Positions 18,849-53,529 of a DNA stretch of 64,000 bases are shown one piece after another. Every line of letters begins with the position of its first letter. Position 1 is the first letter of the stretch. Origin of the DNA: Bacteroidales bacterium (GTDB lineage: Bacteria; Bacteroidota; Bacteroidia; Bacteroidales; Paludibacteraceae); contig SUXE01000006.1 in the NCBI GenBank assembly GCA_015061115.1, forward strand, positions 1 through 64,000, given 5' to 3'. The notes beneath the pieces were generated by a model. That model did no database searches and was not told where the DNA came from. It saw only the letters and a list, made by a program, of their open reading frames with translations. The position numbers and the translations under genes are program-made.

Positions 18849-18936
18849 AATTTAATCTTTTAGTTATAAAATGTTGAATGTTATTTGTTTGTGGGTGTTT
18901 TTGCGAGTAGCCGCCGCAAAATCGCCACATTGATAT

Positions 18937-19362: not shown

Positions 19363-19380
19363 TATATTATAAACATTTTT

Positions 19381-19431
19381 GTAAAGTCTTTATATTTTTC
19401 TTTGGATAGAATATAAAGTCTTTATATTTTT
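19381..19431. promoter_or_regulatory. Two 18-nt direct repeats (taaagtctttatattttt) in the divergent intergenic region; candidate operators
   Basis: Exact repeat at 19381-19399 and 19412-19431, between the HTH gene (-) and ORF 19516 (+). Confidence 0.4.
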
Positions 19432-19515
19432 GCATTGTCAAAATGAAACAAGTTGCTAAAATAGTTTAGCAATAAGTTACAAAATAAATAAACGGAATCT
19501 AAAAAAACAAGAAAT

Positions 19516-19911
19516 ATGACAAAAGAAGAATTTGAAACGTTGGTGGGCTACCCTGTAGCGGATCAAGAATACAAGCGAGCAATGGCAGTGTATATGGCTT
19601 GCTCTTGTAGCCTTGATGATTTTATTAAGGATTACAAAGCCCATAAATGTGACTTACTGCTAGATATAGCAGAAAGTCTAAACTTTGAGAAGAATCAAAA
19701 GGAACATGCGAACGACACATTGCTAAGTCTTGCCGAATGTATCATGTCTGAAGTGGAAGACGCTGGCGAAAATTGTGGTAAGCATCTGGCGACACTTAGA
19801 GACCACGCACGCATCGCGCTTGGCGCACGTCACTTCGTAAGACTATGTCTTGAAAAAGGCTATTCCCTGCAGGATGCGGATAGAGAATATCTTCTGAGAG
19901 CATTGTCTTAA
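19516..19911 (+). CDS. Hypothetical protein (position of an early-region cro/antirepressor-like gene)
   Basis: 131-aa ORF with no recognisable domain. Confidence 0.45.
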   Translation: MTKEEFETLVGYPVADQEYKRAMAVYMACSCSLDDFIKDYKAHKCDLLLDIAESLNFEKNQKEHANDTLLSLAECIMSEVEDAGENCGKHLATLRDHARIALGARHFVRLCLEKGYSLQDADREYLLRALS

Positions 19912-19922
19912 CTCAATCAATC

Positions 19923-20028
19923 CCCGTGTTTTTTTATGCTGTGAGGAATCACGGCTAAAAAATGGAAACAAAAGTGCTTTTCATACTGACTTATTTGAAT
20001 TAATGGGGGTTCGAATCCCCCCACGGGG
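19923..20028 (+). ncRNA. tRNA-like structured RNA 'Z': perfect 7-bp acceptor-like stem CCCCGUG/CACGGGG, canonical T-arm GGGGG-UUCGAAU-CCCCC, internal 7-bp GGAA-tetraloop hairpin
   Basis: Folding by eye. At ~106 nt it is too long for, and lacks the cloverleaf of, a canonical tRNA. Confidence 0.4.
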
Positions 20029-20166
20029 ACAATGGTAATCATTCTGTTATTTACAAATCTGGCGACAGCGGTCGCGCCCTGCTATTGCTTGTGAAAGTAA
20101 AATGCAGGTTGGTGAAACTAAAATCATTTTTTTAACTGGCCCCTCCACGGGTTGGCGGGGCAAAAT

Positions 20167-20318
20167 GGTGGGGAAGATCAACGGTTGATTCCGTGGAAAG
20201 AATTGCAGACGAGGTTCAGCGTCCCGTGTATATCTGGAATCTCCTAAAGTTTGGCGGTCTGCAATAGCGTCGACACGGCCTAGGACTGAAAGCGGTTCGA
20301 CTCCGCACCCCATCACTA
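20167..20318 (+). ncRNA. tRNA-like structured RNA 'A': acceptor GGUGGGG/CCCCAUC, T-arm AGCGG-UUCGACU-CCGCA, discriminator A
   Basis: All 7 acceptor pairs form, including G-U. A conserved 26-nt motif (cccYccacgggttggcggggcRaaat) lies immediately upstream, as for RNA B. Long internal pairings (TTGCAGACG/CGTCTGCAA). Confidence 0.45.
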
Positions 20319-20613
20319 AGCCCGTGAGGGTCGTCCAGAATACATGTTATAAAATAAGACCGCCTTACGGGTTAGGGCGGTGACAAGGGGGCAACATGAG
20401 GCCAGTGTAGCAAGGAAGCACAGCGTTCCTGCTTGGCCTGAGACACTGGTAGGATGTGTTTGTGGCTGGGATTACCCTGTATAAAAGCCTGCAAGTCACA
20501 GACGGAGTTTCGATTACTTCTGCTCCCACAAAAGCCCGTGAGGGTGCTAATTATTGTTTTTTGTTATTAAATGTTAAAAAGCAAGCCCCACCACGGGTTG
20601 GCGGGGCGAAATC

Positions 20614-20713
20614 GGGAGGAAGGCGACGGCAGCAGAGAACGTGTCAAGCTGATCATTCAGCGAGTCCGGAAAATTTGACCCTGAAAGCGGTTCGACTCCG
20701 CAGACTCCCACTC
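20614..20713 (+). ncRNA. tRNA-like structured RNA 'B': acceptor GGGAGGA/GACUCCC, same T-arm as A
   Basis: The 5' 24 nt are homologous to RNA C (GGGAGGAAGGCGACGGCAGC vs GGGCAGAAGGCAACGGCAGC). Acceptor stem has 5 bp plus conserved tandem G.A/A.G. Confidence 0.45.
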
Positions 20714-20774
20714 TGTACGATCTTTTTGATTATATATTTCTCAGTCGGCATTTGTGAAAACCCCGACTGCAACC

Positions 20775-20867
20775 GGGCAGAAGGCAACGGCAGCTGACTA
20801 TTGTCAAGTGATAAGACGACAATAGAACCTCGGTCTGAAAGTGGTTCGACTCCACAGATGCCCACCA
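20775..20867 (+). ncRNA. tRNA-like structured RNA 'C': acceptor GGGCAGA/GAUGCCC, T-arm AGUGG-UUCGACU-CCACA, discriminator A plus encoded CCA
   Basis: Compensatory changes relative to B at acceptor positions 4:69 and 5:68. Internal 8-bp/12-nt-loop hairpin instead of an anticodon arm. The 3' end abuts the excisionase gene. Confidence 0.5.
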
Positions 20868-20881
20868 AAAAAGTAACGCTT

Positions 20882-21217
20882 ATGAGTATAGAAGAAAGAA
20901 TTGATCGTCTCTCCGAAATGGTGAGCGAAAACAACAGGATGCTGGCTCTTTTGCTTGGCGAGTCAACACCACAGGTAGAGCCAAGAAAGTACATGACTGT
21001 CGCTGAGGCTAGCAGGGTGACTGGCTTGTCTGCACGCTCTTTGAGAATTTATTGTAATCGTGGAGATATAAAAGTCAGCAGGGTAGGCAAATATATATTG
21101 CTGCTCACGGAAAGCCTTTATGCCTATATCGAAAGCACGGCAAGACCGACGACAAAGGATAGGGTAAATGAAGTTTTACGTAACACAGACAGATGTCATG
21201 GGACAAGCGGATTTTAA
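20882..21217 (+). CDS. Excisionase-like / MerR-type HTH DNA-binding protein
   Basis: YMTVAEASRVTGLSARSLRIYCNRGDIKVSRVGKYILL is typical of xis-like HTH domains of Bacteroidetes mobile elements. Start chosen at MSIEERIDR; the ORF-track start at 20801 would overlap RNA C. Confidence 0.6.
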   Translation: MSIEERIDRLSEMVSENNRMLALLLGESTPQVEPRKYMTVAEASRVTGLSARSLRIYCNRGDIKVSRVGKYILLLTESLYAYIESTARPTTKDRVNEVLRNTDRCHGTSGF

Positions 21218-21461
21218 TATCACCTTCAGCAAGGTAATCGCAGAGATAGACAGACGGTGCAATGAGATAACACATCCTGTGCCGGATGACGTAAAGGTGA
21301 TTGAGCGCAAACTGATGACAATGGGTAAGATTGTTAGTATGTTGCAGGAGTCTCTGCCCATGTCTGCGGATTGTGTCAAATGGAAAGAATATGTAGAAGC
21401 AAGACTTAATGAATTGAGAGATGAAGACAAAAAAGCAGATAGCGAGATTGGAGAAGATTGA
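21168..21461 (+). CDS. Hypothetical phage protein
   Basis: 97-aa ORF. Confidence 0.35.
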   Translation: MKFYVTQTDVMGQADFNITFSKVIAEIDRRCNEITHPVPDDVKVIERKLMTMGKIVSMLQESLPMSADCVKWKEYVEARLNELRDEDKKADSEIGED

Positions 21462-21672
21462 TCGTCTGGTCGCTGAATACACCAGTCTTTCACAACAAGT
21501 TTCACAACAAGGAGACAGCCGCACAGAGATGTGGCAGAAACTTGAGGGTGATTTTGGGTGGTCACGGCAGCACATGATGAACATCCTAAAGGTTGTAGGG
21601 GTGCTGAAACCCAAAAATAATGTCAAACAAAAAAAAAGGAGGAAAGGAAATGAACGTAGAGTTGTTGCGTAG
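21421..21672 (+). CDS. Hypothetical phage protein
   Basis: 83-aa ORF, coiled-coil-like. Confidence 0.3.
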   Translation: MKTKKQIARLEKIDRLVAEYTSLSQQVSQQGDSRTEMWQKLEGDFGWSRQHMMNILKVVGVLKPKNNVKQKKRRKGNERRVVA

Positions 21673-22189
21673 AGAACTAAATCTGATTAAGGATGAGGCT
21701 CTGAAAAACAAGGTGGAGGCTATCCTACAGAACATTCCAGAAGTGATGGAGCATAAACCAAGTTCGCCATCGGGCAGGTATCATCCGGACTTTGACAATT
21801 CGGATGGAGGCAACATAAAGCACACTAAGGCTGTTGTCAAGGTTGCGGAAAAATTGGTGGACGGATTTTCGTCTTGGGATTATGCTTTGCACAGCATTAA
21901 CGCAGACCACATATATGCGGCTTGCATTCTTCACGACATGTGCAAGTATGGTACAGACCCAGACACCGCAACGCACACAGTGCACGAGCATCCGAAACTT
22001 GCTGGCGATTTGATTAGATCCGATTATCCACATGTTGCGTTTCTTATCGACTCCCACATGGGGAAATGGAACACTTCGAAATATAGTAATGTCACTCTGC
22101 CAGTTCCTGTGACGTTTATGCAGAAAATTGTGCATATCGCTGACTGCATAGCTGCACAAAAGTGGATAAGTGATAAGATACTTGATTAA
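21650..22189 (+). CDS. HD-domain metal-dependent phosphohydrolase
   Basis: H...HD...H...D pattern (RYHPDF, CILHDMCKYG, HTVHEHP, LIDSHMGKW). Strong RBS aaaggaggaaaggaaATG at 21650. Confidence 0.6.
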   Translation: MNVELLRRELNLIKDEALKNKVEAILQNIPEVMEHKPSSPSGRYHPDFDNSDGGNIKHTKAVVKVAEKLVDGFSSWDYALHSINADHIYAACILHDMCKYGTDPDTATHTVHEHPKLAGDLIRSDYPHVAFLIDSHMGKWNTSKYSNVTLPVPVTFMQKIVHIADCIAAQKWISDKILD

Positions 22190-22205
22190 GAAATTAAAAA
22201 AAAGC

Positions 22206-22940
22206 ATGGCAGGATATATCAAGCTATACAGAAAATTCGCTGAATGGGAATGGTATCAGGATGCGAATGTGACACGGGTCTTCCTGCATCTGCTTTTATC
22301 GGCAAATTACGAAGACAAGCGGTGGCGTGGACAACTGATAAAAAGGGGGCAATTTGTCACTAGTTTAGAGCATCTTTCAAACGGGTTGGGGCTGTCTATT
22401 CAACAGATTCGCACTGCACTGGAGAAATTGGAAGGTACTGGCGAGATAGCCAAACAATCAACAAACCAATATACACTGATAACTATTTGTAAATTTGATT
22501 GTTACCAAGCCGAAGGAGAAGCGGAGCAACAAACGGATAACAATCAAATAACAACAACTAAAGAATATAAAGAATATAAAGAAAGAGAAGAAGATAATCC
22601 ACACACATACGCGCATGCGTGCGTACGTGTGCGAGAGGAAGATGAAAGATTCTATGCCGAGATGAAAAGGGGTGGCACGCAATGGCAGGAAGATGCATGC
22701 AGGACGCTTAAGATAACATTGCCCGAACTTGCAGACCTTGTGTGTCAGTTCGAGGTGGAATGCAGAGCAAAAGGCACGACACACATAAGCTGGAAGGATG
22801 CATCAAGCCACTTTATTGATTGGGGTAGAAGACAAGTTCAATCAAGACAAAAACAACAATACTATGGCAGTAGAAATAAAGAAAATATTGACAAAAGGGG
22901 TGGGTTTGAACCAACCGACAACACGGATTACTCAGCATAA
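22206..22940 (+). CDS. Putative replication initiation / replisome-organizer (DnaD-like winged-helix) protein
   Basis: N-terminal IKLYRKFAEWEWYQD...LLLSANYEDK is typical of phage replisome-organizer N-domains; it is followed by a DnaC-like ATPase gene. Confidence 0.45.
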   Translation: MAGYIKLYRKFAEWEWYQDANVTRVFLHLLLSANYEDKRWRGQLIKRGQFVTSLEHLSNGLGLSIQQIRTALEKLEGTGEIAKQSTNQYTLITICKFDCYQAEGEAEQQTDNNQITTTKEYKEYKEREEDNPHTYAHACVRVREEDERFYAEMKRGGTQWQEDACRTLKITLPELADLVCQFEVECRAKGTTHISWKDASSHFIDWGRRQVQSRQKQQYYGSRNKENIDKRGGFEPTDNTDYSA

Positions 22941-23646
22941 GAACAAGATACGCTTGCCATTCTGCAGAGTGAGAAACGACATTGCCAACTACTATGTGGC
23001 AGAAGTGAAAAAGACAAACATGGAGTTGGTTGTGGATGAGGCTTTGACTGAGCCGATAGACCAGACGGCAATGTGGCTGACTGGCAGAACCAAAGAAGAG
23101 CTGGAGACAGGCTTGGCCCAAAGACCCGACCGGAAACTGGAAGACAAGAAACTGGAAATAACCGACGACGAAAAGATTTGGCTGTGTATTATGGGTGTAT
23201 GTGGAAATGGAAAGACGACGCTACTAAAGGCTATCAGCGAATATCTTAAACAGATACACACGTTTAACGACGGCAAATTTATTCATCTAGCCCCTTTTTC
23301 CTTCAAGTATGTGACAGCGGTGGAGCTGGCTGAGATGTACCTGGAAGACCGTAAGACGTACATGGGCATTCGCAACACAAAACTGTTGCTCATAGACGAT
23401 CTAGGAAAAGAGCCAGCTGAGATCTTGGATTATGGCAACAAATTCAAACCGATGGAAGACATGCTGCAGTATCGGTACAATGAGAGGCTAGGCACGATAT
23501 TTACAACGAACATGAATAGGACACAGGCGACCGCATACTACGGCAAGAGAATTGGCGACAGGATGCTAGAGTGCTGTAAGTATGTTGTGTTTGAGGGAAA
23601 AAGTTTTCGTGGCAGACTTGCACAGACGGAAATTCTGTTTCAATAG
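22867..23646 (+). CDS. DnaC/IstB-like AAA+ ATPase (helicase-loader-like replication protein)
   Basis: Walker A GVCGNGKTTLL; Walker B LLLIDDLG. Confidence 0.75.
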   Translation, partial: AVEIKKILTKGVGLNQPTTRITQHKNKIRLPFCRVRNDIANYYVAEVKKTNMELVVDEALTEPIDQTAMWLTGRTKEELETGLAQRPDRKLEDKKLEITDDEKIWLCIMGVCGNGKTTLLKAISEYLKQIHTFNDGKFIHLAPFSFKYVTAVELAEMYLEDRKTYMGIRNTKLLLIDDLGKEPAEILDYGNKFKPMEDMLQYRYNERLGTIFTTNMNRTQATAYYGKRIGDRMLECCKYVVFEGKSFRGRLAQTEILFQ

Positions 23647-23676
23647 TTAATTTATGAATTAAAACAAAAAGACAGG

Positions 23677-24498
23677 ATGAAAACTAAGTTGTTAAAAAAA
23701 ATAAATCGTGCTATTAGATTGTTGCAATCTATTGAAGGCGAGGTCGAGATTGCATATTCTGGCGGCAAAGATTCGGATGTGATTTTGCAACTTGCAAAGG
23801 AATCAGGAATTTCATTCAGAGCCGTTTATAAGAACACGACAATAGATCCGCCGGGTACGATTAAGCACGTAAAGGAGGTGGGGGCTGAGATCTTACACCC
23901 GAAAAAAAACTTTGGGCAGCTGATCGAAGATAAAGGATTACCCAACAGATTTCGCAGATTTTGTTGTGCGGAATTGAAGGAATACAAAGTCGCTGACAAG
24001 GTAGTGATAGGAATAAGAAGGGCAGAAAGCCGAAAGAGAGGCGAACGTTATAAAGAACCGACAGAATGCAGGTATTACGGAAAAAAGACAGAGGCAAACC
24101 ACGTCGTACAATATTACCCGATTCTTGATTGGACGGACGAAGATATAAGGGATTTTGTACTGGATAGAGGCATCAAACTCCACTCCCTATATTACACCGA
24201 AGGAGGAGATATAGACGTGACAAGGCGGTTGGGTTGCATGTGTTGCCCGTTGGCAAGTCGAAAAAAAAGAATTGCGGAGTTTAAAAAATATCCTCTCATG
24301 CTAAGGTACTATGCAAGGCATGCAAATATATTTTTAAAGAAAAAGAAGTTGGACTACGATGACGTTTTTGAATGGCTAGTCAGGGATATATTTTATAGCA
24401 CGCAGAGCAAATTTAACAAGAACAAAGAGAAAAATCTGTTTGATGACAAAATCGACTACAAATCTTTTTTGGAAAATTACTTTAAGATAAAATTATGA
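23677..24498 (+). CDS. Phosphoadenosine-phosphosulfate-reductase-family (PP-loop ATP pyrophosphatase) protein
   Basis: PP-loop IAYSGGKDSDVIL; C-terminal Cys cluster (CMCCPLA). Confidence 0.8.
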   Translation: MKTKLLKKINRAIRLLQSIEGEVEIAYSGGKDSDVILQLAKESGISFRAVYKNTTIDPPGTIKHVKEVGAEILHPKKNFGQLIEDKGLPNRFRRFCCAELKEYKVADKVVIGIRRAESRKRGERYKEPTECRYYGKKTEANHVVQYYPILDWTDEDIRDFVLDRGIKLHSLYYTEGGDIDVTRRLGCMCCPLASRKKRIAEFKKYPLMLRYYARHANIFLKKKKLDYDDVFEWLVRDIFYSTQSKFNKNKEKNLFDDKIDYKSFLENYFKIKL

Positions 24499-24896
24499 GG
24501 TACGTGAAAGTTAAAGTTGTTTGTTTTGACGAACAAGTGGGAAAAAATGTCAACAAAACATTTTTTGTTGATGCAGAATCATTCGCTGACGCAGAAAAAA
24601 AAGTTTATGAAGCAATTTATTCTGTCATGCCACATTCGCTAGCGAATATAAAAAGCATGGGCTATGTTCAGTTTTCAGAATGCAAGCTTACACAGAATGA
24701 TGGTGATTTCTACAAGGTCACGCTTTGCATGGTGTTTGACGACGAAAATACAGGCAGACGAAAAAAGACAAAATACACAATGCTTGTTGAGGCTATGGAC
24801 ACCAAGGATGCCCATTTTATTGTGGAATCAGAGTTGAGAGACGATGAAATTCTTAAGATCGAGAAGTTGGATGTTGAGAATGTAATAAGTTGTTGA
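24495..24896 (+). CDS. Hypothetical phage protein
   Basis: 133-aa ORF. Confidence 0.45.
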   Translation: MRYVKVKVVCFDEQVGKNVNKTFFVDAESFADAEKKVYEAIYSVMPHSLANIKSMGYVQFSECKLTQNDGDFYKVTLCMVFDDENTGRRKKTKYTMLVEAMDTKDAHFIVESELRDDEILKIEKLDVENVISC

Positions 24897-24900
24897 GGCT

Positions 24901-25089
24901 ATGATAAAAAAAGTATTAATAGCATTGTCTTATTTGGTTGTGTTTGCATGGGGTGTGTCTATCGGCAAGATCAAACAGCAACGCACAGAGACAGCATGTC
25001 TGGATGAATATGAAACAATATATTGTCGTATGATGGAACAGAGAGGGGACACAATAACTACCCTTAACACGTTGATAAAGAAAAATTAA
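24901..25089 (+). CDS. Small membrane protein (hypothetical)
   Basis: 62 aa with an N-terminal TM. Confidence 0.35.
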   Translation: MIKKVLIALSYLVVFAWGVSIGKIKQQRTETACLDEYETIYCRMMEQRGDTITTLNTLIKKN

Positions 25090-25094
25090 ATCTT

Positions 25095-25394
25095 ATGGGA
25101 AAAAAAATTTTTATTTCTGGGGCAATCACAAATGATCCTGATCACAAAACAAAATTTGCTGAGGCTGAAAAGCATCTGCAGGAACAAGGATATGTGGTGG
25201 TTAATCCTGCGAAATTGTCGGAAATCATGAACTCTGATGAATTCCAATGGGAGGATTATATCAAAGTTACTATAACTATGCTATGTGCTTGTGACAGTAT
25301 ATATATGCTGCAGGGATGGCAAGAGTCCAAGGGGGCAAGGGAAGAAGAATTGTATGCGTGGGTGCATGGCAAAGAAATAATTCACCAAAATTGA
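25095..25394 (+). CDS. DUF4406-like protein (nucleoside 2-deoxyribosyltransferase-like fold)
   Basis: MGKKIFISGAITNDPDHKTKFAEAEKHL...VVNPA matches the DUF4406 pattern (KIYISGxITG...FxxAExxL...VxNP). Confidence 0.5.
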   Translation: MGKKIFISGAITNDPDHKTKFAEAEKHLQEQGYVVVNPAKLSEIMNSDEFQWEDYIKVTITMLCACDSIYMLQGWQESKGAREEELYAWVHGKEIIHQN

Positions 25395-25401
25395 TACTAA
25401 G

Positions 25402-25857
25402 ATGACGTATGAATTTATAGGCAATATTTTGTCGTTTACAGAGAAAAGTGGGCATAGCTCAAGAGGCGAATGGCGAATGTGGGAAGTTGTGCTGGAGCAT
25501 GACTATACTGGACAATTCCCTAGACGTGTTGTCTTGAATGTGTGGGATGAGAACGTTCAAAACATTGTTGCTATATGTAGCGGCAATAAATCCCAGATAA
25601 GAATGCTTGTGTCTGTAGACGCAAGAGAAAGCAACGGTAGATGGTTTAATGATCTCCGTGCATATCGTGCTGAGGCTGTGAGTGTACAGCCTAACGCAGG
25701 ATATCAGCAACAATATCAGCAGCCGATGCAAGGTGGGCAGTTTGTAGCCCCTGCAGCTCCTGCACAGCCAATCCCCAGTTACCAATCCAATGGTCAAATT
25801 ACTCCTGGATACTCTCAGGGACAATGGCAAGGAGGCACGGCTGATACTCCTTTCTAG
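25402..25857 (+). CDS. DUF3127-like OB-fold protein with a Gln/Gly/Pro-rich tail ending DTPF (SSB C-terminal tip mimic)
   Basis: SGHSSRGEWRMWEVVLEHDYTGQFPRRVVLNVWDENV fits the DUF3127 core. The C-terminus QGQWQGGTADTPF* resembles the SSB DDDIPF tail. Confidence 0.55.
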   Translation: MTYEFIGNILSFTEKSGHSSRGEWRMWEVVLEHDYTGQFPRRVVLNVWDENVQNIVAICSGNKSQIRMLVSVDARESNGRWFNDLRAYRAEAVSVQPNAGYQQQYQQPMQGGQFVAPAAPAQPIPSYQSNGQITPGYSQGQWQGGTADTPF

Positions 25858-25880
25858 AATTAAAAGAAAAAAATAAGAAT

Positions 25881-26285
25881 ATGGGTAAAAGTTTGCATTT
25901 GCCAATGATTGCTAAGTGGTATGGAATGATAGAATCATTGCAAAAACCGCATGAGTATAGATCTATTACTCCATATTGGATTTCGAGGCTGGTAAAGAAA
26001 GAATATGTCGACATGATAAAAGCGGAATGCAGTGTGTCATGGAGGTTTGCCAAGTTGCATATATCATCAAGGATAGAGTTAGCAGGTTATATAGAACTTC
26101 TATTGATAAAATATGGAGACTATATTTTTAAGGAATTTGATTATATCGATTTTTCTTATGGATATACGAAAAGGCACATGGTATGGACACATGAAGGCTT
26201 TGACATTAGAGAAGGTAATCCAGAATGGGGTGCAAAACAAGGTGAGCCGTGTTTTATAATAATGTTGGGTAGAAGGGTGAAATAA
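25881..26285 (+). CDS. Hypothetical protein, weakly ASCH-like
   Basis: 134 aa. The N-terminal MIAKWYGMIESLQKPHEYRSI resembles the ASCH beta-barrel start. Confidence 0.3.
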   Translation: MGKSLHLPMIAKWYGMIESLQKPHEYRSITPYWISRLVKKEYVDMIKAECSVSWRFAKLHISSRIELAGYIELLLIKYGDYIFKEFDYIDFSYGYTKRHMVWTHEGFDIREGNPEWGAKQGEPCFIIMLGRRVK

Positions 26286-26345
26286 TATGAACAACAACCA
26301 TTTTCCTGACATCAGGAAAATGGTAAAACAAAAAAACAAAAAACT

Positions 26346-26642
26346 ATGGAAGTAGCATTAGTTTACACTTACATTTATGGAGTCCTATGGATGTTTTTTG
26401 CAGCTTGCGTATTTTTTGGAGTTGTGATTGCGTATGAAATTGGGCATTACGCTAACATCTATCGAAAGCATGCAAAGTGCAAAAAATGGTTTTGGGAAGG
26501 ATTAAAATTTGTCACAATGAATGTTGGGCAAGTGAAATTTACGAGAATTGCAATTTGTATTTTGCTCTTATCTATAATGTCATTTGGTGCGGTCTTTTTT
26601 GTGGCTGGATTGATTTTGCAAGACAAATATAACATTTATTAG
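26346..26642 (+). CDS. Small membrane protein (hypothetical)
   Basis: 98 aa, 2-3 TM. Confidence 0.4.
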   Translation: MEVALVYTYIYGVLWMFFAACVFFGVVIAYEIGHYANIYRKHAKCKKWFWEGLKFVTMNVGQVKFTRIAICILLLSIMSFGAVFFVAGLILQDKYNIY

Positions 26643-26644
26643 TT

Positions 26645-26854
26645 ATGGAGAAAATAAAAAACGGAATAATAATCAGAGGATTTACATATGAGGCCGTGGA
26701 GCAGACCAGATATCATGGATGCGATGATTGCGACCTTGCGGACGAATGCACTCAGAATACTTTTTATGACAACCCTTGCGAGTTGCTGAACGATATGTAT
26801 TTTGATACAGGGTTCAAGGCTATAATGTTCAAAAGAGTAGAAGATGAACGTTGA
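26645..26854 (+). CDS. Small Cys4 (CxxC-x5-C-x9-C) protein, paralog a
   Basis: Shares KNGIII...YEAV...CxxCDLxDxC with ORF 27626. Confidence 0.45.
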   Translation: MEKIKNGIIIRGFTYEAVEQTRYHGCDDCDLADECTQNTFYDNPCELLNDMYFDTGFKAIMFKRVEDER

Positions 26855-27083
26855 ATTTTGTGTGAAAATTTCTGTCGGTAAAAGACGGTCTCATATTGTA
26901 GACGATGTTGTTTACTATCGACGTTACATGGATTTTGATTTTGTTTTGCGTTGGCAATGGTATTTTCATTATATCTCTGCTCTCGTTCAAGTTCGTCATC
27001 CAGAACTGTTCGTCAGGACTTTTATTGGCAGAACTGATATGCTGACTTCAGCAGAGTATATTGAAAAAAACGTGCTGACTTGA
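26844..27083 (+). CDS. Hypothetical phage protein
   Basis: 79-aa ORF. Confidence 0.3.
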   Translation: MNVEFCVKISVGKRRSHIVDDVVYYRRYMDFDFVLRWQWYFHYISALVQVRHPELFVRTFIGRTDMLTSAEYIEKNVLT

Positions 27084-27274
27084 TTCGTGCCCAAAAAGCC
27101 AAGCTCACTAAAATTAAAGGAATTCCAGTACAATATGATCTGTTTGGATACAACCAGACAGAACGTGTAGAAAAGGTTGAGGCTATTGAAAAGAGACTGA
27201 AGGATCTTGAAAATGGGGTTGTTGATTTTTGGGTTTATGGCGATTATATTAATAAAATAAAATCTTATTTGTAA
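27080..27274 (+). CDS. Hypothetical phage protein
   Basis: 64-aa ORF. Confidence 0.3.
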   Translation: MIRAQKAKLTKIKGIPVQYDLFGYNQTERVEKVEAIEKRLKDLENGVVDFWVYGDYINKIKSYL

Positions 27275-27277
27275 GTT

Positions 27278-27607
27278 ATGGTAAAAAACGTAGAAAAAAA
27301 AATTGTCATTGGAGACAAGGAGTATCTTATTACTTTGATGTTAATAGATGTCTATTCTGGAGCAGGATCTTGGTTTAAGGTAAGAGTTGACGAGAGACAA
27401 AAAGGCAAAAGGAAATGGGTTGCTATAAAACTGACAAGTCTGGAAGATGCGAACTTGGCAAGATTGTGGGGAAAGCATATCGAACACACATCTTATTACA
27501 TCTACTGTATAAAGTCTCGCATTCCTGACATAGATAAGATTTTGCAAGAACTGAAAAATAAACTTGCAGAGAGTATCAAGGAACAGGTTTTAGAAATTAA
27601 GTTATAA
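27278..27607 (+). CDS. Hypothetical phage protein
   Basis: 109-aa ORF. Confidence 0.4.
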   Translation: MVKNVEKKIVIGDKEYLITLMLIDVYSGAGSWFKVRVDERQKGKRKWVAIKLTSLEDANLARLWGKHIEHTSYYIYCIKSRIPDIDKILQELKNKLAESIKEQVLEIKL

Positions 27608-27625
27608 CTAGGAAGAGTGTAGAAA

Positions 27626-27853
27626 ATGGCAGAAGTTAAAAACGGAATCATTATAGATAACGTCATCTATGAGGCTGTAGACTTTAATGGAAAAGATTAT
27701 GACGGAACGTCTGCATGTACTAATTGTGATTTATTGGACGTATGTGCGTCTTTGTATAATAAAAATAGTTTGTGCCAGACTTTTGTCTATGAAAGCAAAT
27801 TGTTAAGCGAGTATGTGATTTTTAGAAAAAGAAAAGAAAAATGGAATTGTTAG
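27626..27853 (+). CDS. Small Cys4 (CxxC-x5-C-x9-C) protein, paralog b
   Basis: MAEVKNGIIIDNVIYEAV...CTNCDLLDVC...C parallels ORF 26645. Confidence 0.45.
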   Translation: MAEVKNGIIIDNVIYEAVDFNGKDYDGTSACTNCDLLDVCASLYNKNSLCQTFVYESKLLSEYVIFRKRKEKWNC

Positions 27854-28311
27854 ATATATTGCAAGCCTTTAAGGAAGGCAAAATAACTCAATACAGAGGA
27901 CATGGTGATCAGAAATGGCAAAGTGTATGTTGTGGTCACAAATGGAACACAGAAAAATTTGAATATAGGATAAAGCCAGATCGAGAGATATATCCCTATA
28001 CAAGGGAGGAGCTGTTTGAAGCACTCTCTTTGTGTGGGCCAAAAGTTATGCTAAAAAGTACAGGAGAATTGTTTTATATCTCTGATGTGCTTTCAGATAA
28101 GATACTATTGAAAAAAGACAGAAAAGGGTCAGAAATATGCGTTTCATATCAGGACTTTGCAGACGGGTACTGCTGGAATAACTCTATGTGGCCAACGTCT
28201 TGTACGTTATGTGGCTGGGATTCGCAAATATATGAGATTGTTGAAGAACCAATTTATGATAAAGGAGTTCGATGGGGCACAGAAAGAATTGTTAAAAAAA
28301 GAGAAGTATGA
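27841..28311 (+). CDS. Hypothetical phage protein (Cys-rich)
   Basis: 156-aa ORF. Confidence 0.4.
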   Translation: MELLDILQAFKEGKITQYRGHGDQKWQSVCCGHKWNTEKFEYRIKPDREIYPYTREELFEALSLCGPKVMLKSTGELFYISDVLSDKILLKKDRKGSEICVSYQDFADGYCWNNSMWPTSCTLCGWDSQIYEIVEEPIYDKGVRWGTERIVKKREV

Positions 28312-28598
28312 CAGAAAAAGACAACAGATTTTATAAGCATTTAAGGAAATGCATCTCAAAGATTGATGAGTTTGGGGAAATGACAATATATCCGTCTATG
28401 TACCCGAATTTTATTGCACCTTTTGTTCCGTTCAGGAGTACCATTTTTGGTTGCACTTTTGATTGTGTTCCTGATTGTATTATACAAACAGATGGCAGCC
28501 TATGCGTAGGCTTAATTGATTTTATATCATTTTTTGATGATTATGATTCGGTTGAAAAGGCTTTGTTTAACCATTTTAACATTGACGAAGATGAGTAA
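28308..28598 (+). CDS. Hypothetical phage protein
   Basis: 96-aa ORF. Confidence 0.4.
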   Translation: MTEKDNRFYKHLRKCISKIDEFGEMTIYPSMYPNFIAPFVPFRSTIFGCTFDCVPDCIIQTDGSLCVGLIDFISFFDDYDSVEKALFNHFNIDEDE

Positions 28599-28851
28599 GG
28601 TATTGGAAGCACTGCATTTAGTGCAAGAAATGAAGAAACGCAACAAAGAAAGGGAGTTGTCGGCTGTATCTTATAGCGAAGATAAAAGAGAATACTTCCG
28701 TATAGCGTCGCGTCGCGCGAGAGCTAAAAATTATGAGCAGATGCGTGCGTACCATAGGGAATACTATCGTCTGCATAGAGAAGAGATTAGAGAGAGGCAA
28801 AGGGAATACCGCAGGAAAAGAAAGGAGTCAGATCAAAAATCTAAAAAATAA
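28591..28851 (+). CDS. Small highly basic Arg/Lys/Glu-rich protein (hypothetical)
   Basis: Start chosen at the overlapping ATGAGTAA junction; REYRRKRKE-type sequence. Confidence 0.35.
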   Translation: MSKVLEALHLVQEMKKRNKERELSAVSYSEDKREYFRIASRRARAKNYEQMRAYHREYYRLHREEIRERQREYRRKRKESDQKSKK

Positions 28852-29153
28852 TGCTCATGAGACATAAAAATGATAATATGTATGTTTATGTTGTGTCTAA
28901 GATCAAGTGGCAAGAGACACAAGTCATAAGACATGGGAATGTGGTGTATCGCACATGTGAAGGTTCGTACAAGCACTTGAAGGTAATTCGCAAGACTATG
29001 CATGAACGGTTTTCCAATGGGAATGGCTGGAAACTCCCTAAAGTGAAGTATATCTGCGACGGTGGAGTTTGGGATTCATCAGTTAAAATGGGAGTTTATC
29101 TTAAAACATTAGATAGAGAAGAGAAAAAACAAAAACAAATAAAAAATGAGTGA
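28851..29153 (+). CDS. Hypothetical phage protein
   Basis: 100-aa ORF. Confidence 0.4.
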   Translation: MLMRHKNDNMYVYVVSKIKWQETQVIRHGNVVYRTCEGSYKHLKVIRKTMHERFSNGNGWKLPKVKYICDGGVWDSSVKMGVYLKTLDREEKKQKQIKNE

Positions 29154-30405
29154 TAGAATAACACATGCGTCGGTATTCAGTGGCATTGGTGCTTCTGAAC
29201 TGGCTGCGGAAATGTTAGGGTGGAAAAATCTTTTCCATTGCGAAATTAACGAATTTGGACGTAAGGTGTTAAATTATCATTTCCCTAATGCAAGAAGCTA
29301 TGAAGATGTTACAACAACAGATTTCTCCGAATTTCGGGGAAAAGTTACGGTTCTTACAGGAGGATTTCCTTGTCAGCCGTTTAGCTATGCCGGGAAGCGA
29401 AGAGGCTCGGAAGATGACCGCTACCTCTGGCCGTACATGCTCAATTGCATTAACCAAGTCAGACCCACTTGGTTTATTGGCGAAAATGTTGCTGGAATCA
29501 CCACGATGGTATTCCCCAGTGAGGATGTTAAGGTGGGAGAGCAAGCCGATTTGTTTGGAGAAGGTGACGGTTATGAGATATATGAAAAACGTGAAAAATA
29601 CGTCCTCGGTGGAATCTATGGAAACCTTGAAAATATCGGATATTCCGTCCAGACATTCATTGTTCCGGCTTGTGCCGTGGGAGCTCCCCACCGACGAGAC
29701 AGAATTTTTATCGTCGCACACAGACCTTCTGAAGACTCCGACTGCGTTCGATGCGGAGGTGACGACAGGGAAGAAGAACCCCAAAGCAGGAAATTCGGGA
29801 TGTCTTGCGCAGGAAGTGATGAGTGGATATGTAAAAAAGAGGATGCTAGGCCTTCTCCCAACACCGACAGCACAAGACAATCCACACCCGACAAACAAAA
29901 TAGACGAGAATGGGAGAAGATGGACGGAAGGAGCGAAAGCAAGTCATTCGATGGGGTTGGCAGACATGGCTTATATGGGATTGCTTCCGACACCGCAAGC
30001 GAGCGAGGGAGAAAAATTCGCAAACAAATACAAACCAAGCTCTCAAATGGGGCGAAGTCTTTCCGCAATGGCAGGTGGAGGATTGCTTCCTACGCCAAGG
30101 GCAAACGTAGTGACAGATTTGAATCTGAACAGCGAGGGGCTTGCAAATCGGAATCATGCGAATTTAGAAGAAAGAATTGCAGCATGCGTTTGTCGCTTGA
30201 AGACAGATGGCGACATTTCCCGACTCAATCCCCTGTTTACAGAGGAAATGATGGGTTTTCCTTTAATGTGGACAGCCTTACCATTTCTTTCGCAAAATGG
30301 AAAAAAGAAACACTAAAAGCCTATGGCAATGCGATTGTGCCGCAGGTGATGTATGAAATATTTTTAATGATAGATGAAATTGAAAAAATGAAAAAAAATA
30401 TATGA
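29146..30405 (+). CDS. DNA (cytosine-5)-methyltransferase. The conserved core is in frame 1 and the target-recognition domain (TRD) is in the +1 frame, between two compensating frameshifts; it may be recoded, phase-variable or mis-sequenced.
   Basis: Frame 1 carries motif I FSGIGASELA, IV GGFPCQPFS, VI ENVAG and VIII RRDRIFIVAHR (up to ~29724), plus motif X YGNAIVPQV at the 3' end (from ~30307). The +1 frame (ORF 29288..30316) carries four ~40-aa repeats LLKTPTAFD/LLPTPTAQD/LLPTPQASE/LLPTPRANV, analogous to the TRD TL(T/S)A motif, and the pre-motif-X segment EEMMGFPLMWT. The second shift site GG_AAA_AAG_AAA (30299-30309) is an X_XXY_YYZ heptamer in register. Confidence 0.75.
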   Translation: MSDRITHASVFSGIGASELAAEMLGWKNLFHCEINEFGRKVLNYHFPNARSYEDVTTTDFSEFRGKVTVLTGGFPCQPFSYAGKRRGSEDDRYLWPYMLNCINQVRPTWFIGENVAGITTMVFPSEDVKVGEQADLFGEGDGYEIYEKREKYVLGGIYGNLENIGYSVQTFIVPACAVGAPHRRDRIFIVAHRPSEDSDCVRCGGDDREEEPQSRKFGMSCAGSDEWICKKEDARPSPNTDSTRQSTPDKQNRREWEKMDGRSESKSFDGVGRHGLYGIASDTASERGRKIRKQIQTKLSNGAKSFRNGRWRIASYAKGKRSDRFESEQRGACKSESCEFRRKNCSMRLSLEDRWRHFPTQSPVYRGNDGFSFNVDSLTISFAKWKKETLKAYGNAIVPQVMYEIFLMIDEIEKMKKNI

Positions 30406-30495
30406 CATTAATTCGACAAATCATTTCAAGTATCAATTTGAAATGATTTGTTTTGTGTTAAAAACATTCTATTTTTGCAAAAAAATAACCTTAAT

Positions 30496-31785
30496 ATGAA
30501 ATTTAAAGAAATTAGCCTAAACTTACTTGAGTTAAACGTAGGTCAAATTGAGGGGTTGCCTGGTAATCCACGAAAAATCAGTGCTGAGAAATTAGAGTTG
30601 CTGAAAAAAGATATACAAGATTATCCCGAATTACTGGAAATGCGAGGCTTGATTGTGTATCCGCATAATGAAAAGTTTGTTCTGATTGGAGGAAACATGC
30701 GATATCGGGCAATGTTGGAGTTAGGGTATGATACAGCTCCATGCATTGTGGTGTCTAAGGATGCCAGTGTAGAAAAGTTAAAAGCTTATACAATTTTGGA
30801 CAACGCACCATTTGGCGAATGGGATTGGGAAGCGTTGTCTAATGATTGGGATGAGGCTAGTCTAATAGATTGGGGATTAACTATGCCAGAATTCGAAAAA
30901 GAGGAAACAAAAGAAAGTGCTGAAGACGATGATTTTGATGAGGCTAAAGATGTAATAGAAACTCGATGCCAGACTGGAGATTTGTGGTTGCTTGGTGAGC
31001 ATCGGTTGCTTTGCGGTGATTCTACTAAAAAAAATGATGTTGCACGTCTAATGGATGGGGAAAGGGCTTCGTTGTGGATAACCGATCCTCCTTATAATGT
31101 GGCTGTTACAAACAGTAAGGGAATGACGATTGCGAACGATAATATGTCGGCTTCCGATTTTTATAGATTTCTTGAATTTGCTTTTGCTTCAGCGTCCTCT
31201 TTTTTGGTGGATGGATGCCCCTTTTATGTTTGGTTTGCGTCAAAAGAGCATATTAATTTTGAGACAGCACTAAATGCAGTTGGCTTAATAGTTCGTCAAG
31301 AACTGATATGGAACAAAAATGCTTTTATCTTAGGACGTTCGCATTATCAATGGAAGCATGAACCATGCTTGTATGGTTGGAAAGGAGATGTGTGTAAATA
31401 TTTTACTAATTCGAGAAATCAGTCAACCGTCATATCTGATGAATTGGAATTAAATATTGATAAAATGAAAAAAGAACAAATGCGTGATTTGTTAAAAGAA
31501 ATTTTGTCAGATAAGATGCCAACTTCCGTGATCGATGAAAACAAACCCTTAAAAGATGAAGACCACCCGACCATGAAGCCGGTAAGACTGTTTGGCTATT
31601 TGATTGCAAATTCGTCGCAAAATAATGATATTGTATTAGACAATTTCGGTGGTAGTGGAACGACTTTGATTGCCTGTGAACAATTAGGACGCAAGGCGAG
31701 ACTTATAGAAATAGATCCTCATTATTGTGATGTCATAATTGCAAGATGGGAAAAGTATACTGGAAAAACAGCAGAGAAGATATAG
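30496..31785 (+). CDS. ParB-like nuclease domain fused to an N6-adenine/N4-cytosine DNA methyltransferase
   Basis: N-terminal ParB/Srx motif (GGNMRYRA). DPPY motif ITDPPYNV; SAM motif FGGSGTT. Start chosen at MKFKEISL. Confidence 0.85.
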   Translation: MKFKEISLNLLELNVGQIEGLPGNPRKISAEKLELLKKDIQDYPELLEMRGLIVYPHNEKFVLIGGNMRYRAMLELGYDTAPCIVVSKDASVEKLKAYTILDNAPFGEWDWEALSNDWDEASLIDWGLTMPEFEKEETKESAEDDDFDEAKDVIETRCQTGDLWLLGEHRLLCGDSTKKNDVARLMDGERASLWITDPPYNVAVTNSKGMTIANDNMSASDFYRFLEFAFASASSFLVDGCPFYVWFASKEHINFETALNAVGLIVRQELIWNKNAFILGRSHYQWKHEPCLYGWKGDVCKYFTNSRNQSTVISDELELNIDKMKKEQMRDLLKEILSDKMPTSVIDENKPLKDEDHPTMKPVRLFGYLIANSSQNNDIVLDNFGGSGTTLIACEQLGRKARLIEIDPHYCDVIIARWEKYTGKTAEKI

Positions 31786-31787
31786 GT

Positions 31788-32171
31788 ATGGATAATTTTG
31801 TCAAACGTATAAATCCGTTGTCTAAACCAGTTGTGTATACTGCAGAATCATTGTGGGCTAAATTTGTTGATTATTGTTGTTGGTGTGAATGTAACGCTAT
31901 TGAATTACCAGCAGCCATAAGCCTTAAAGGAAAAAAACAAGTGGATTGTCGTACAGAAAAAAAAATAACGGTAAAAAGGCCTTACTTGATAAGTGATTTT
32001 TCTTTGTGGGCTGATATTGACAATTGGGAGGCTTTTAAAACAAAAAATATGCGAAGTGATGGCTTTGCAAAGGTTATTGATTATATAGAAAAAACAATAA
32101 AAAATCAACAAACTATAGGCATAGTTACAGGAATGTACTATGCGACGGTTAAAACACGGCATTTGATGTGA
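31788..32171 (+). CDS. Hypothetical phage protein
   Basis: ORF beginning MDNFVKRIN, just after the methyltransferase stop. Confidence 0.4.
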   Translation: MDNFVKRINPLSKPVVYTAESLWAKFVDYCCWCECNAIELPAAISLKGKKQVDCRTEKKITVKRPYLISDFSLWADIDNWEAFKTKNMRSDGFAKVIDYIEKTIKNQQTIGIVTGMYYATVKTRHLM

Positions 32172-32207
32172 AGATTTTTTTTTATTTTTGCAAAAAAAAT
32201 GTAAACT

Positions 32208-32882
32208 ATGAAAAGGACTTTTTTGTTAATGTTGCTCTTAGCAGTTTTTGCTCTTAGCAGTGCACAGGTAATGTGTGTCAAGGTGTATGAGGATTTGGAT
32301 CGTTGGAAAAGGCTAAAGCAAGAAAATGTTATTGCTTGGGCAACTACACTAAAAGATTCTGCATTTTATGGCTTTAACCAAGTTGACGAATTAGAAGGTG
32401 AATATGTGATTCTGTTGGACTCTTCTCGTAAGGTGGCGGATTTGAAGGATATCACTATGGATTTTTTCAGCAAAAAATTCACGCTCACGTCGCATTGGAA
32501 AAGTGACATAAAAAACAGAATGGAGCTAAAGGAAACAGGCACTAATTCGATGTATTTTCATGCAGTATATACAAAAGCGTCTTACTTGGCTTCTGGGTTA
32601 GCGGAACATGTCATTGATATTGATGTTGTTTTTATCGTGAAGTTTAAGGAAGACAAAATTAAGATGACAATCGCTATACCAAGTTATCAATATTATAGCG
32701 GAACAAAAAGCGACGTAAGGAAGATTGGCGTATATCCGCCGTTTCAGTCGTATGGGACAAGTCGGAAGGAGCGTAGAGACGACACGTTTTTTTGCAAGGC
32801 ATACATTAAAGCATGTGAATGTATTCTTGATTATACAAAATCGTATTGCGAATACTTAAATAAAAACTTAGGTGAGTGGTAG
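32208..32882 (+). CDS. Secreted hypothetical protein (signal peptide)
   Basis: MKRTFLLMLLLAVFALSSAQ signal peptide. Confidence 0.5.
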   Translation: MKRTFLLMLLLAVFALSSAQVMCVKVYEDLDRWKRLKQENVIAWATTLKDSAFYGFNQVDELEGEYVILLDSSRKVADLKDITMDFFSKKFTLTSHWKSDIKNRMELKETGTNSMYFHAVYTKASYLASGLAEHVIDIDVVFIVKFKEDKIKMTIAIPSYQYYSGTKSDVRKIGVYPPFQSYGTSRKERRDDTFFCKAYIKACECILDYTKSYCEYLNKNLGEW

Positions 32883-32905
32883 AGCGAAAGTATAAAAAAA
32901 CAAAA

Positions 32906-32937
32906 AAATGCAGGATTACAGTCCTGCATTTTTTTGT
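32906..32937 (+). terminator. Rho-independent terminator (ATGCAGGA-ttacag-TCCTGCAT plus T7)
   Basis: Seen directly; it ends the early/modification module. Confidence 0.6.
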
Positions 32938-33003
32938 TTCGATTTTTGTTATGGCTGTTTTTTATGATTCTTAAAAAGATATATTTGTGGCGTTTGAATA
33001 TAT

Positions 33004-33300
33004 GTGACAATGGAGGTAAGAAAAAGAATTAATCTAAGTGTTGATGTTGACACGTACAGTCGGTTGTCTCGATTTGCTAAGAGTCGACGATACAAGAATG
33101 AATGCGAACTGGTGATGAGCATGATAAATGTTATGCTTGATTGCCTTGTTCCTATTGAAAAAAAGCGTTTCGATATACCAGAGGACGATGCAATGTATAT
33201 CAATGAAATGTTTGCTCAAATGTCTTATTCAGCAACAAAACAGGCAGATGGTGATGGAGGAGTCGCAATCACAAGAAGAAATAAAAAAAACAATGTATGA
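33004..33300 (+). CDS. Hypothetical phage protein
   Basis: 98-aa ORF. Confidence 0.35.
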   Translation: MTMEVRKRINLSVDVDTYSRLSRFAKSRRYKNECELVMSMINVMLDCLVPIEKKRFDIPEDDAMYINEMFAQMSYSATKQADGDGGVAITRRNKKNNV

Positions 33301-33632
33301 AAGTAGATGGAGTATATAGACGTTATATATCATCACGTCGATGGCTGAGGCTAAGACGTGAAAAGATGACTGTTTGCCCATTGTGCGAGGAATGTGCTAA
33401 GGATGATAGATGCACTGCAGCAACGGAAGTGCATCATCGAATACCTGTTGAGTCTGTTAAGTCTTACACGGAACAACAACGCTTGATGTTTGATTTCACT
33501 AATCTTATGTCGGTCTGTCATGAGTGTCATGTTAGACTTCATATAGGCTTAAAGAAGCAAACTAAAGAAGAAACCATAAAACGGAATAAAGACCAAGTAG
33601 AAAGAATCATTGAAAAATTTTTTGCTGATTAA
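33297..33632 (+). CDS. HNH endonuclease
   Basis: CPLCEEC...HHRIPV...CHECHVRLH zinc-finger HNH motif; sits adjacent to the terminase genes. Confidence 0.8.
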   Translation: MKVDGVYRRYISSRRWLRLRREKMTVCPLCEECAKDDRCTAATEVHHRIPVESVKSYTEQQRLMFDFTNLMSVCHECHVRLHIGLKKQTKEETIKRNKDQVERIIEKFFAD

Positions 33633-33633
33633 T

Positions 33634-33723
33634 GGGGGGGTGTTTTTTTTATAGGGGGGAGGGGGTGCAAACCCCGCCCCTAACCCTCTTTCACACACGT
33701 GCAATTTTTGGGGGCTTGGGGGG
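33634..33723 (+). other. G-tract element (G7, G6-a-G5, G4, G6, plus a C4-g-C4 partner) between the HNH and TerS genes; candidate cos/pac site or G-quadruplex-forming element
   Basis: Seen directly: atggggggg...atagggggga gggggtgcaaaccccgcccc...tttttgggggcttgggggg. The minus-strand ORF 33549..33752 here is spurious (it translates as a Pro/Gly run). Confidence 0.4.
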
Positions 33724-33754
33724 ATAAGAAAAATGACAAAAATGACACACATAT

Positions 33755-53050: not shown

Positions 53051-53143
53051 CATTTGTTTTTTTTTGTGTCAAACAGCATATTCAATTTGTCCTTATAGTA
53101 TTTGCATTCTGTTATTTTTGCATTTCATTTAAATACATAAAAA

Positions 53144-53518: not shown

Positions 53519-53529
53519 ATTCTAAATGC

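Follow-up and report, generated by a model that had tools for sequence, protein, structure and literature searches.

The interval at positions 21650-31785 of a 64,000-nucleotide stretch of Bacteroidales DNA (contig SUXE01000006.1, positions 1 to 64,000; this whole stretch is called the window below) lies within a prophage and encodes, among other proteins, a stand-alone PAPS-reductase-like PP-loop protein (PAPS-like below), a C5 DNA methyltransferase and a ParB-like::N6/N4 DNA methyltransferase. The interval is an ordinary mosaic early region, and what is notable in it is a common, uncharacterised PP-loop enzyme together with a nested methyltransferase that is systematically mis-annotated. Overall, we consider it probable that this is the mosaic early and replication region of an apparently active temperate Bacteroidota phage, with DNA protection by the methyltransferases and, more speculatively, by the PP-loop ATPase. 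A DnaD-like initiator, a DnaC-like loader and an SSB-like DUF3127 protein would make up the replication part, to which a DUF4494 protein probably also belongs; an HD-domain protein, a DUF4406 protein, an ASCH-like protein, the PAPS-like protein and the two methyltransferases would be exchangeable accessory cassettes. Protection would come from three elements, namely a heterodimeric C5 methyltransferase, whose beta chain from a nested +1 open reading frame (ORF) would supply motif IX and a four-module recognition array allowing methylation of several sequence contexts, the ParB-like::N6/N4 methyltransferase and, more speculatively, an Fe-S-type PP-loop ATPase related to BrxP and DndC that would adenylate a substrate.

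The initial annotation had read the HD, PAPS-reductase-like, DUF4406, ASCH-like and DUF3127 genes, together with the two methyltransferases, as suggesting a self-DNA modification or anti-restriction module beyond simple methylation. Co-occurrence was counted at 160 loci with a PAPS-like homolog (31-69% identity), 80 of them viral (IMG/VR) and 80 from bacterial genomes, chiefly Bacteroidales metagenome-assembled genomes and some Clostridia; flanks of up to 10 kb on each side were compared by BLASTP with every window protein at 1e-4. The members of the cluster were absent or rare. The HD protein (21620/21650-22189) was matched at 0/80 viral and 0/80 genomic loci, DUF3127 (25402-25857) at 3/80 and 0/80, DUF4494 (24495-24896) at 1/80 and 2/80, DUF4406 (25095-25394) at 6/80 and 8/80, and the ASCH-like protein (25881-26285) at 7/80 and 4/80, all of these counts being lower bounds since BLASTP at 1e-4 may miss fast-evolving small proteins. 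Across the 160 loci, the DUF and ASCH-like matches that did co-occur seldom adjoined the PAPS-like gene. A Pfam scan of the immediate neighbours (positions -1, +1 and +2) at 43 dereplicated viral loci agreed with the BLASTP counts: 42 different families were found, DUF4494 was a neighbour at none of these loci and DUF4406 at one, and the commonest class was DNA methyltransferases (N6_N4 at five loci, Dam at one and C5 at one). The contexts differed even for PAPS-like homologs of 60-63% identity, which lay between VRR-NUC and terminase genes or amid small uncharacterised ORFs.

The density of methyltransferase ORFs was 0.57 per 10 kb within 3 kb of the PAPS-like gene versus 0.24 per 10 kb at 3-10 kb, an enrichment of about 2.4-fold (p = 0.02) that is modest and based on BLAST with the window's own methyltransferases. 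C5, Dam and other methyltransferases are found at a distance of one to three genes from the PAPS-like gene in two temperate phages of Bacteroides, BS-TP4 and BKO1-TP3. Two arrangements look like "methyltransferase islands" that include the PAPS-like gene: a methyltransferase-PAPS-methyltransferase operon directly ahead of the terminase in phage NatCom_17901 (Heliusvirales; L256, 2745-7062), and, in BKO1-TP3 (L088, 5998-9944), a PAPS-like gene that has several DNA methyltransferase genes around or after it, just ahead of the packaging genes. ParB-domain matches near the PAPS-like gene were found at viral loci L045, L056, L074 and L084 and at 4/80 genomic loci. A pairing of PAPS and ParB proteins like that of IbrA/IbrB was considered and set aside; the near-PAPS matches hit the methyltransferase domain and not ParB. 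The modest enrichment, the sensitivity of the BLASTP counts and the fact that this phage is known here from sequence alone all weigh against the overall reading.

A single pathway was also considered, in which the HD, PAPS-like, DUF4406 and ASCH-like proteins would make and read a hypermodified base or backbone on top of methylation. Known modification systems do include deoxyribosyltransferase-like, PP-loop and ASCH/EVE folds; in the window the four domain families are genuine, their genes share one strand and a stretch of 5 kb, and the PAPS-like stop overlaps the DUF4494 start. However, the genes are not co-inherited (HD 0/160, DUF4494 3/160, DUF4406 14/160 and ASCH-like 11/160 PAPS-like loci), and no base-synthesis or base-transfer enzyme of the known routes was present among the ORFs scanned. 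Specifically, the ORFs at 18937-34450 gave no match to a hydroxymethylase (thymidylate-synthase-like), glycosyltransferase, DpdA/Que (QueCDE), PurZ, kinase/aGPT-Pplase or Mom-like enzyme, with novel enzymes possible among the small ORFs without a family. Such a pathway is thus very unlikely. Co-occurrence is rare or absent and no hypermodification enzyme was found; therefore the genes are better described as independent cassettes in a replication region than as a pathway, and the gene set is no more than a chance association. Of the initial annotation, then, the coherent hypermodification module is not supported, while an anti-restriction function is partly supported by two DNA methyltransferases, a DndC/BrxP-related PP-loop enzyme and the enrichment of methyltransferases beside PAPS-like genes. 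These data also carry a caution, that neighbouring "modification-flavoured" domains in phage early regions need not form a pathway.

A C5 methyltransferase in two reading frames

The C5 methyltransferase alpha ORF (29146-30405, plus strand; C5 DNA_methylase, 124 bits) carries motifs I (29176), IV (29368), VI (29482), VIII (29692) and X (30325) in one open frame. The beta ORF (29288-30316, plus strand) lies wholly inside alpha in the +1 frame and holds four LL(P/K)TP recognition modules (29726, 29852, 29981 and 30083), followed by motif IX (MGFP, at 30251; NPLFTEEMMGFPLMWT). The middle third of alpha is unconserved, low-complexity, stop-free read-through. The gene had been described at the outset as a C5 methyltransferase with a four-repeat target recognition domain; the repeats exist, but they sit in the separate +1 ORF and not in the catalytic frame. 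The same split of motifs between frames recurs in BS-TP4, BKO1-TP3 and loci L045, L050, L086 and L089. Among 78 further viral loci, motif IV lay one frame before the recognition-array (beta) frame in 77, and in at least 65 the alpha frame stayed open without a break from motif IV to beyond motif X.

Both frames are kept open well beyond expectation from the other. When codons were shuffled synonymously so as to preserve the beta protein, alpha stayed open across the array in fewer than 1/300 shuffles (median); when it was the alpha protein that was preserved, about 2% of shuffles left beta open over motifs IV-VIII. Differences per beta codon position were 0.20/0.14/0.53 in a recognition module common to many loci, and amino acid identity there was 78% in the beta frame versus 39% in the alpha frame. 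This pattern indicates that in the recognition module beta is the coding frame under purifying selection and alpha is merely kept stop-free. Outside the overlap alpha showed the usual third-position pattern, and within motifs IV-VIII its third positions were less free (0.39 versus 0.51).

The beta ORF matches more than 4000 database proteins, and among the matches listed most are called "hypothetical", have no Pfam domain and cover the beta ORF over most or all of its length, many of them starting at a conserved ATG. Gene callers choose alpha in some contigs and beta in others, never both. In its middle the family is mosaic, with recognition modules numbering from one to about ten, which is what a multispecific array would be expected to show. 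In one beta relative (P0153), an HNH_3-type endonuclease is inserted in frame between the conserved N-terminal part and the recognition modules; this could be a homing endonuclease or an intein-like element within a translated +1 frame. In four metagenome variants (P0161, P0179, P0198 and P0124), the alpha frame runs into the beta frame just past motif IV, reading ...PCQPFSYAGKRGG and then directly RQMTAISG..., and such a product would be without motifs VI and VIII; either the assemblies are in error here or the frame varies naturally.

Neither a sequencing error nor a pseudogene was retained as the source of the frame split; independent assemblies are identical and the split is conserved, and purifying selection is evident. 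A more elaborate alternative is that the gene yields a single chain by two programmed frameshifts, +1 after motif VIII and -1 before motif X, or is a pseudogene still decaying. The spliced alpha-beta-alpha sequence does reproduce the fused enzymes of actinophages, and a classic -1 slippery heptamer, A_AAA_AAG, lies at 30301-30307 in the beta phase, three codons ahead of the beta stop. A slip at this site would lead into the frame of motif X; the site is probably incidental, and a minor fused product is possible. However, BS-TP4, L089 and most relatives lack the heptamer, and a conserved slippery site was found at neither junction. Frameshifting would moreover need neither an alpha frame open across the array nor a beta frame open upstream to the conserved ATG, and both are strongly maintained, while purifying selection excludes the pseudogene variant. 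A nested two-chain solution is proven for M.EcoHK31I. We therefore regard frameshifting or decay as quite improbable and conclude that the C5 enzyme is probably a nested heterodimer of the M.EcoHK31I type, whose beta chain, predicted to be translated, would also carry a multi-module array. Two observations speak against this assignment: an AlphaFold model of the beta ORF alone was poor (pLDDT 53), and in M.EcoHK31I the recognition domain is assigned to alpha, not beta.

M.EcoHK31I is the experimental case found for the nested alpha/beta layout, which a large group of Bacteroidales phages has as its standard arrangement. Pipelines annotate either alpha, with its meaningless middle, or beta, as a "hypothetical protein"; because only one ORF is annotated, thousands of entries are wrong in protein-family databases and in predictions of methyltransferase specificity.

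The PAPS-like PP-loop protein

The PAPS-like protein (23677-24498, plus strand; 273 amino acids; PAPS_reduct PF01507, 61 bits; phrog_424) stands alone, 4.6-6 kb from the window's methyltransferases, and its family, when clustered at 90% identity, comprises more than 5400 clusters of stand-alone proteins about 280 amino acids long. The SGGKDS loop and cysteines C96, C97, C131, C187 and C190 (CC...C...CxxC) were invariant among 22 homologs, a signature of an adenylating PP-loop ATPase with a putative Fe-S site, at which a cluster would be held. The ECG[LI]H C-terminal catalytic motif of CysH is absent from the sequence. Scores against equivalog models were 26.4 bits for CysH (PRK02090, cut-off 154), 20.8 bits for APS reductase (TIGR02055, cut-off 235) and 22.9 bits for DndC (TIGR03183, a partial match, cut-off 290), and on these grounds the protein is, to judge by its sequence, neither a CysH nor a DndC equivalog. 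The best-matching models were archaeal-type PAPS-like families and the PADLOC model for BrxP (1e-14, residues 21-227); PADLOC DndC matched at 2e-6, also in part, and the DndC and BrxP matches cover the PAPS domain only. No ATPase partner of the DndD/SspC/BrxC type was present among the early-region ORFs scanned, in which DndA (cysteine desulfurase), DndE and SspB were likewise not found and the sole ATPase was the DnaC-like loader.

Several published observations bear on the role of this protein. A PAPS domain fused to Dam in Vibrio podophage 44E38.1 (p0018), when moved with one neighbouring gene, gives escape from Dnd (bioRxiv 10.1101/2021.05.05.442762, Piel et al.; Nat Microbiol 2022); this is the nearest functional precedent. 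Anti-defence operons under Aca regulation also contain PAPS genes (PMC13551039). What viral PAPS homologs do is regarded as open (PMC11437467). DndC, SspD and BrxP require partners of the DndD/SspC/BrxC kind to make phosphorothioate, and phosphorothioate was undetectable in one Bacteroides strain from the gut in which a PAPS gene adjoins an ATPase gene and dndD is missing (PMC12914056), which speaks against autonomous phosphorothioate synthesis. Because of the Vibrio precedent, the Aca operons and the linkage to methyltransferases, a role in anti-phosphorothioate defence or in DNA modification, depending on host partners, is favoured here. The PP-loop ATPase would most likely counter phosphorothioation-dependent restriction (host Dnd, Ssp or BREX type 4), either by using host partners to mark phage DNA or by disturbing the host machinery. 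The sub-threshold, partial DndC match, the lack of an ATPase partner in the early region and the phosphorothioate-free Bacteroides strain are evidence on the other side.

Three other accounts of the PAPS-like protein were weighed. In the usual virome annotation, viral PAPS homologs are treated as sulfur auxiliary genes (PMC8879888), and the Pfam PAPS_reduct match agrees with that label, under which this protein would be a true PAPS/APS reductase boosting host sulfate assimilation. However, it has the canonical ATP-binding SGGKDS PP-loop and no ECG[LI]H motif, scores far under the CysH and APS-reductase cut-offs, and has methyltransferase, replication and packaging genes as genomic neighbours, not sulfur genes; an auxiliary metabolic role is therefore extremely unlikely. 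The protein might instead act on RNA or free nucleotides, for example in tRNA thiolation like TtcA/TtuA, and not on DNA or on defence by DNA modification. An SGGxDS loop with a cysteine cluster is also the signature of tRNA thiolases, and the protein stands alone, without a DNA-binding partner. ThiI, MnmA, Ncs6 and TtcA have indeed been listed as having the same activity (PMC12914056). Yet no tRNA thiolase family was among the 14 NCBIfam matches at E <= 0.01, whereas PADLOC does give BrxP, and there is both the linkage to DNA methyltransferases and genetic precedent for an anti-Dnd role; we hold action on RNA or nucleotides to be unlikely. We are similarly doubtful that the protein is a minimal DNA-modifying enzyme, independent of partners or hijacking those of the host, that would add a phosphorothioate or another adenylation-dependent mark in concert with the neighbouring methyltransferases.

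Phages of gut and rumen very commonly carry the stand-alone PAPS-like gene, which is routinely labelled a sulfur-metabolism auxiliary gene, and its sequence features and context argue for an anti-defence or nucleic-acid role. Phosphorothioate systems are now known to be frequent in gut Bacteroidota. Were the PAPS-like protein a minimal DNA-modifying enzyme of the kind doubted above, it would be a phage counter-measure to Dnd, Ssp and BREX type 4 that present annotation tools miss.

Other early genes and the prophage

All genes of the interval described here lie on the plus strand. The calls of HD, PAPS-reductase-like, DUF4406, DUF3127 and C5 methyltransferase genes made at the outset were borne out by profile searches; that gene list was real as far as it went, but it left out the DnaD-like initiator, the DnaC-like loader and DUF4494. 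The DnaD-like replication initiator or helicase loader (22170-22940) was recognised by Pfam (DUF7833) and phrog_2514 (5e-27), and the DnaC-like AAA+ helicase loader (22798/22900-23646) by phrog_50 (4e-26), a metagenome gene call starting at the equivalent of 22900. The DUF3127 protein (Pfam, 55 bits; phrog_4932, a weak match to an ssDNA-binding protein) has an OB-fold followed by a Q/P/G-rich C-terminal tail ending ...ADTPF. This tail resembles the acidic protein-interaction tip of bacterial SSBs, which suggests a role in replication rather than in modification.

DUF4494 (Pfam, 59.8 bits) is probably associated with replication or recombination, because of synteny in BS-TP4 and BKO1-TP3, where an HU/IHF-like gene and VRR-NUC flank it and the replication initiator is close by. 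Its start overlaps the PAPS-like stop by 4 nt, and from this ATGA overlap a coupled PAPS/DUF4494 pair was considered; it was rejected, since at none of the 43 dereplicated loci does DUF4494 directly adjoin the PAPS-like gene and since it sits in the replication modules of the two Bacteroides phages. Nothing on the function of DUF4494 or DUF4406 was found in the literature.

The HD-domain phosphohydrolase (PF01966, 32.8 bits; phrog_5889, 3e-33) has no assigned substrate and had no PDB relatives by sequence. The DUF4406 protein is a small nucleoside 2-deoxyribosyltransferase-like protein (Pfam, 91 bits; phrog_355, "nucleoside 2-deoxyribosyltransferase"). PDB sequence searches with the HD, DUF4406, ASCH-like and PAPS-like proteins gave chance or marginal matches only. 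The ORF at 25881-26285, called ASCH-like from the beginning, and 11 homologs (12 in all) had no Pfam match at E <= 1, ASCH (PF04266) included. An AlphaFold model of the protein was confident (pLDDT 91.7), and its best Foldseek matches were ASCH proteins, namely 3iuw (probability 0.96, E 0.09), ZmASCH, PH0355 and PF0470; the entries (3iuw, 5guq, 5y6b, 2z0t and 1xne) had E >= 0.09, none <= 1e-3, and TM-scores of 0.4-0.6. An ASCH/PUA-like fold, and hence the name "ASCH-like" at fold level only, is plausible for this model.

About eleven small ORFs of unassigned function occupy 26346-29153. The statement that many small ORFs lack a known function held up: family scans of this stretch were without match, and most small early-region ORFs match no family. 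Two Cys-rich members (26645-26854 and 27626-27853) are paralogous (45% identity over 42 amino acids, E 3e-8) and share an N-terminal KNGIII..YEAV and a C..CDL.D.C motif; neither matched a family.

The final early gene ahead of the packaging genes is the ParB-like::N6/N4 DNA methyltransferase (30448/30496-31785; N6_N4_Mtase, 98 bits; supported by a metagenome gene call). Its methyltransferase half, as first annotated, is secure, and the ParB_N match falls just short, at 23.7 bits, of the Pfam cut-off of 26.3, with a Noc-like match at 2e-5. The ORF at 30496-31785 also matches PADLOC model PDLC03229 (298 bits), has a full-length homolog in locus L074, and fits a ParB-like::DNA methyltransferase fusion with an N-terminal ParB_N and a C-terminal N6_N4 domain. 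GP3_package (31746-32171) marks the start of the packaging genes, and the interval is therefore the entire early region.

The whole prophage spans 18840-57287 (plus strand; 38,448 bp within the window), with an 8-bp att core at its ends (18840-18847 and 57280-57287) and an integrase at 55987-57147 on the minus strand. From a metagenome contig of about 38.58 kb (L003, ENA sample ERZ27248351), two segments were retrieved, 20.8 kb together, that are 100% identical to window positions 52117-57287 and 18840-34498, with 8 bp, the att core, common to both matches. In L003 the integrase adjoins both lysis and early genes, and the contig is therefore circularly permuted; in contigs of about 38.56-38.58 kb Pfam recognised a phage integrase. 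Of the collection's blocks, 57 index the exact PAPS-like protein, and 39 of these have contigs of 20-50 kb. Because of the identical, circularly permuted contig and the 57 blocks, the prophage is apparently active, in that it excises or replicates.

A related contig is present in JGI 3300018495. At its left end the prophage adjoins the beginning of a gene of the rhomboid family (18261-18848, minus strand). A C25 peptidase resembling gingipains, with a C-terminal T9SS sorting domain, is encoded in the host flank (58816-61533, minus strand), and the host is therefore a member of the Bacteroidota. No defence systems were seen among 10 flank ORFs scanned with Pfam. The closest cultured-phage relatives of several genes are Bacteroides phages, and no near-identical DNA was found among sequenced phages.

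Comparison with known systems

For the C5 enzyme, the beta chain of M.EcoHK31I, which has 117 amino acids, and the multispecific C5 methyltransferases of Bacillus phages SPR, phi3T and rho11s, which are single polypeptides with tandem recognition modules on one catalytic core, provide the nearest points of reference. The window-type gene resembles the Bacillus phage enzymes in its several tandem modules and in their exchange between phages, visible as the mosaic of the family; it differs in that those enzymes use one frame and modules of another sequence type. The window's beta chain is about 340 amino acids long and also holds the modular recognition array, and the comparison with M.EcoHK31I is one of layout, not sequence. 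In both, alpha carries motifs I-VIII as well as X, and beta lies wholly inside alpha in another frame and carries motif IX. For M.EcoHK31I, a C5 methyltransferase, this nesting of beta within alpha has been proven by experiment (Lee, Kam and Shaw 1995; PMC2836561, PMC3404938). What sets the window-type gene apart is the unconserved read-through in the middle of alpha and the fact that it is phage-borne, in thousands of gut and rumen metagenome contigs.

M.AquI and gp42/gp43 of Arthrobacter phage RedFox are likewise made as two chains, and the break falls between motif VIII and the recognition domain. The actinophage comparison is based on direct reading of gp42/43 and of gp71 of mycobacteriophage IrishSherpFalk, a homolog fused in one frame. 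RedFox gp42 carries motifs I-VIII, and gp43, in the +1 frame with LLPTP modules, carries the modules and motifs IX and X. In M.AquI and RedFox motif X is on beta and the ORFs barely overlap, whereas in the window motif X returns to the alpha frame, and alpha must therefore read through all of beta. In RedFox (L257, 781-1000) the gp43 frame is open well upstream of its annotated start and reads ...FELPTW...LLRTPCAAEAEG..., like the N-terminal part of beta in the Bacteroides phages; the alpha/beta overlap may, from this reading, be older and wider than annotated there.

A tblastn search with the recognition array only found BS-TP4 and BKO1-TP3 alone among sequenced phages. These two phages (PMC12694917) share with the window DUF4494, the replication initiator, the DnaC-like loader, the nested C5 methyltransferase, the PAPS-like gene and other methyltransferases; however, the order differs, HD, DUF4406 and DUF3127 are not present, and PAPS-like identity is about 27-29%.

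The PAPS-like protein shares with DndC, SspD and BrxP the PAPS_reduct fold, the PP-loop and conserved cysteines, but lacks the DUF4007/SspB-like extension of BrxP. Compared by description, it shares with Vibrio p0018 a phage-borne PAPS-reductase-like domain, which in p0018 is joined physically to a DNA methyltransferase function and has an anti-defence role that varies; p0018 is a fusion, whereas the window protein stands alone, far from the methyltransferases. The only Vibrio phage match to the PAPS-like protein (1.210.O, 26% identity) is also stand-alone.

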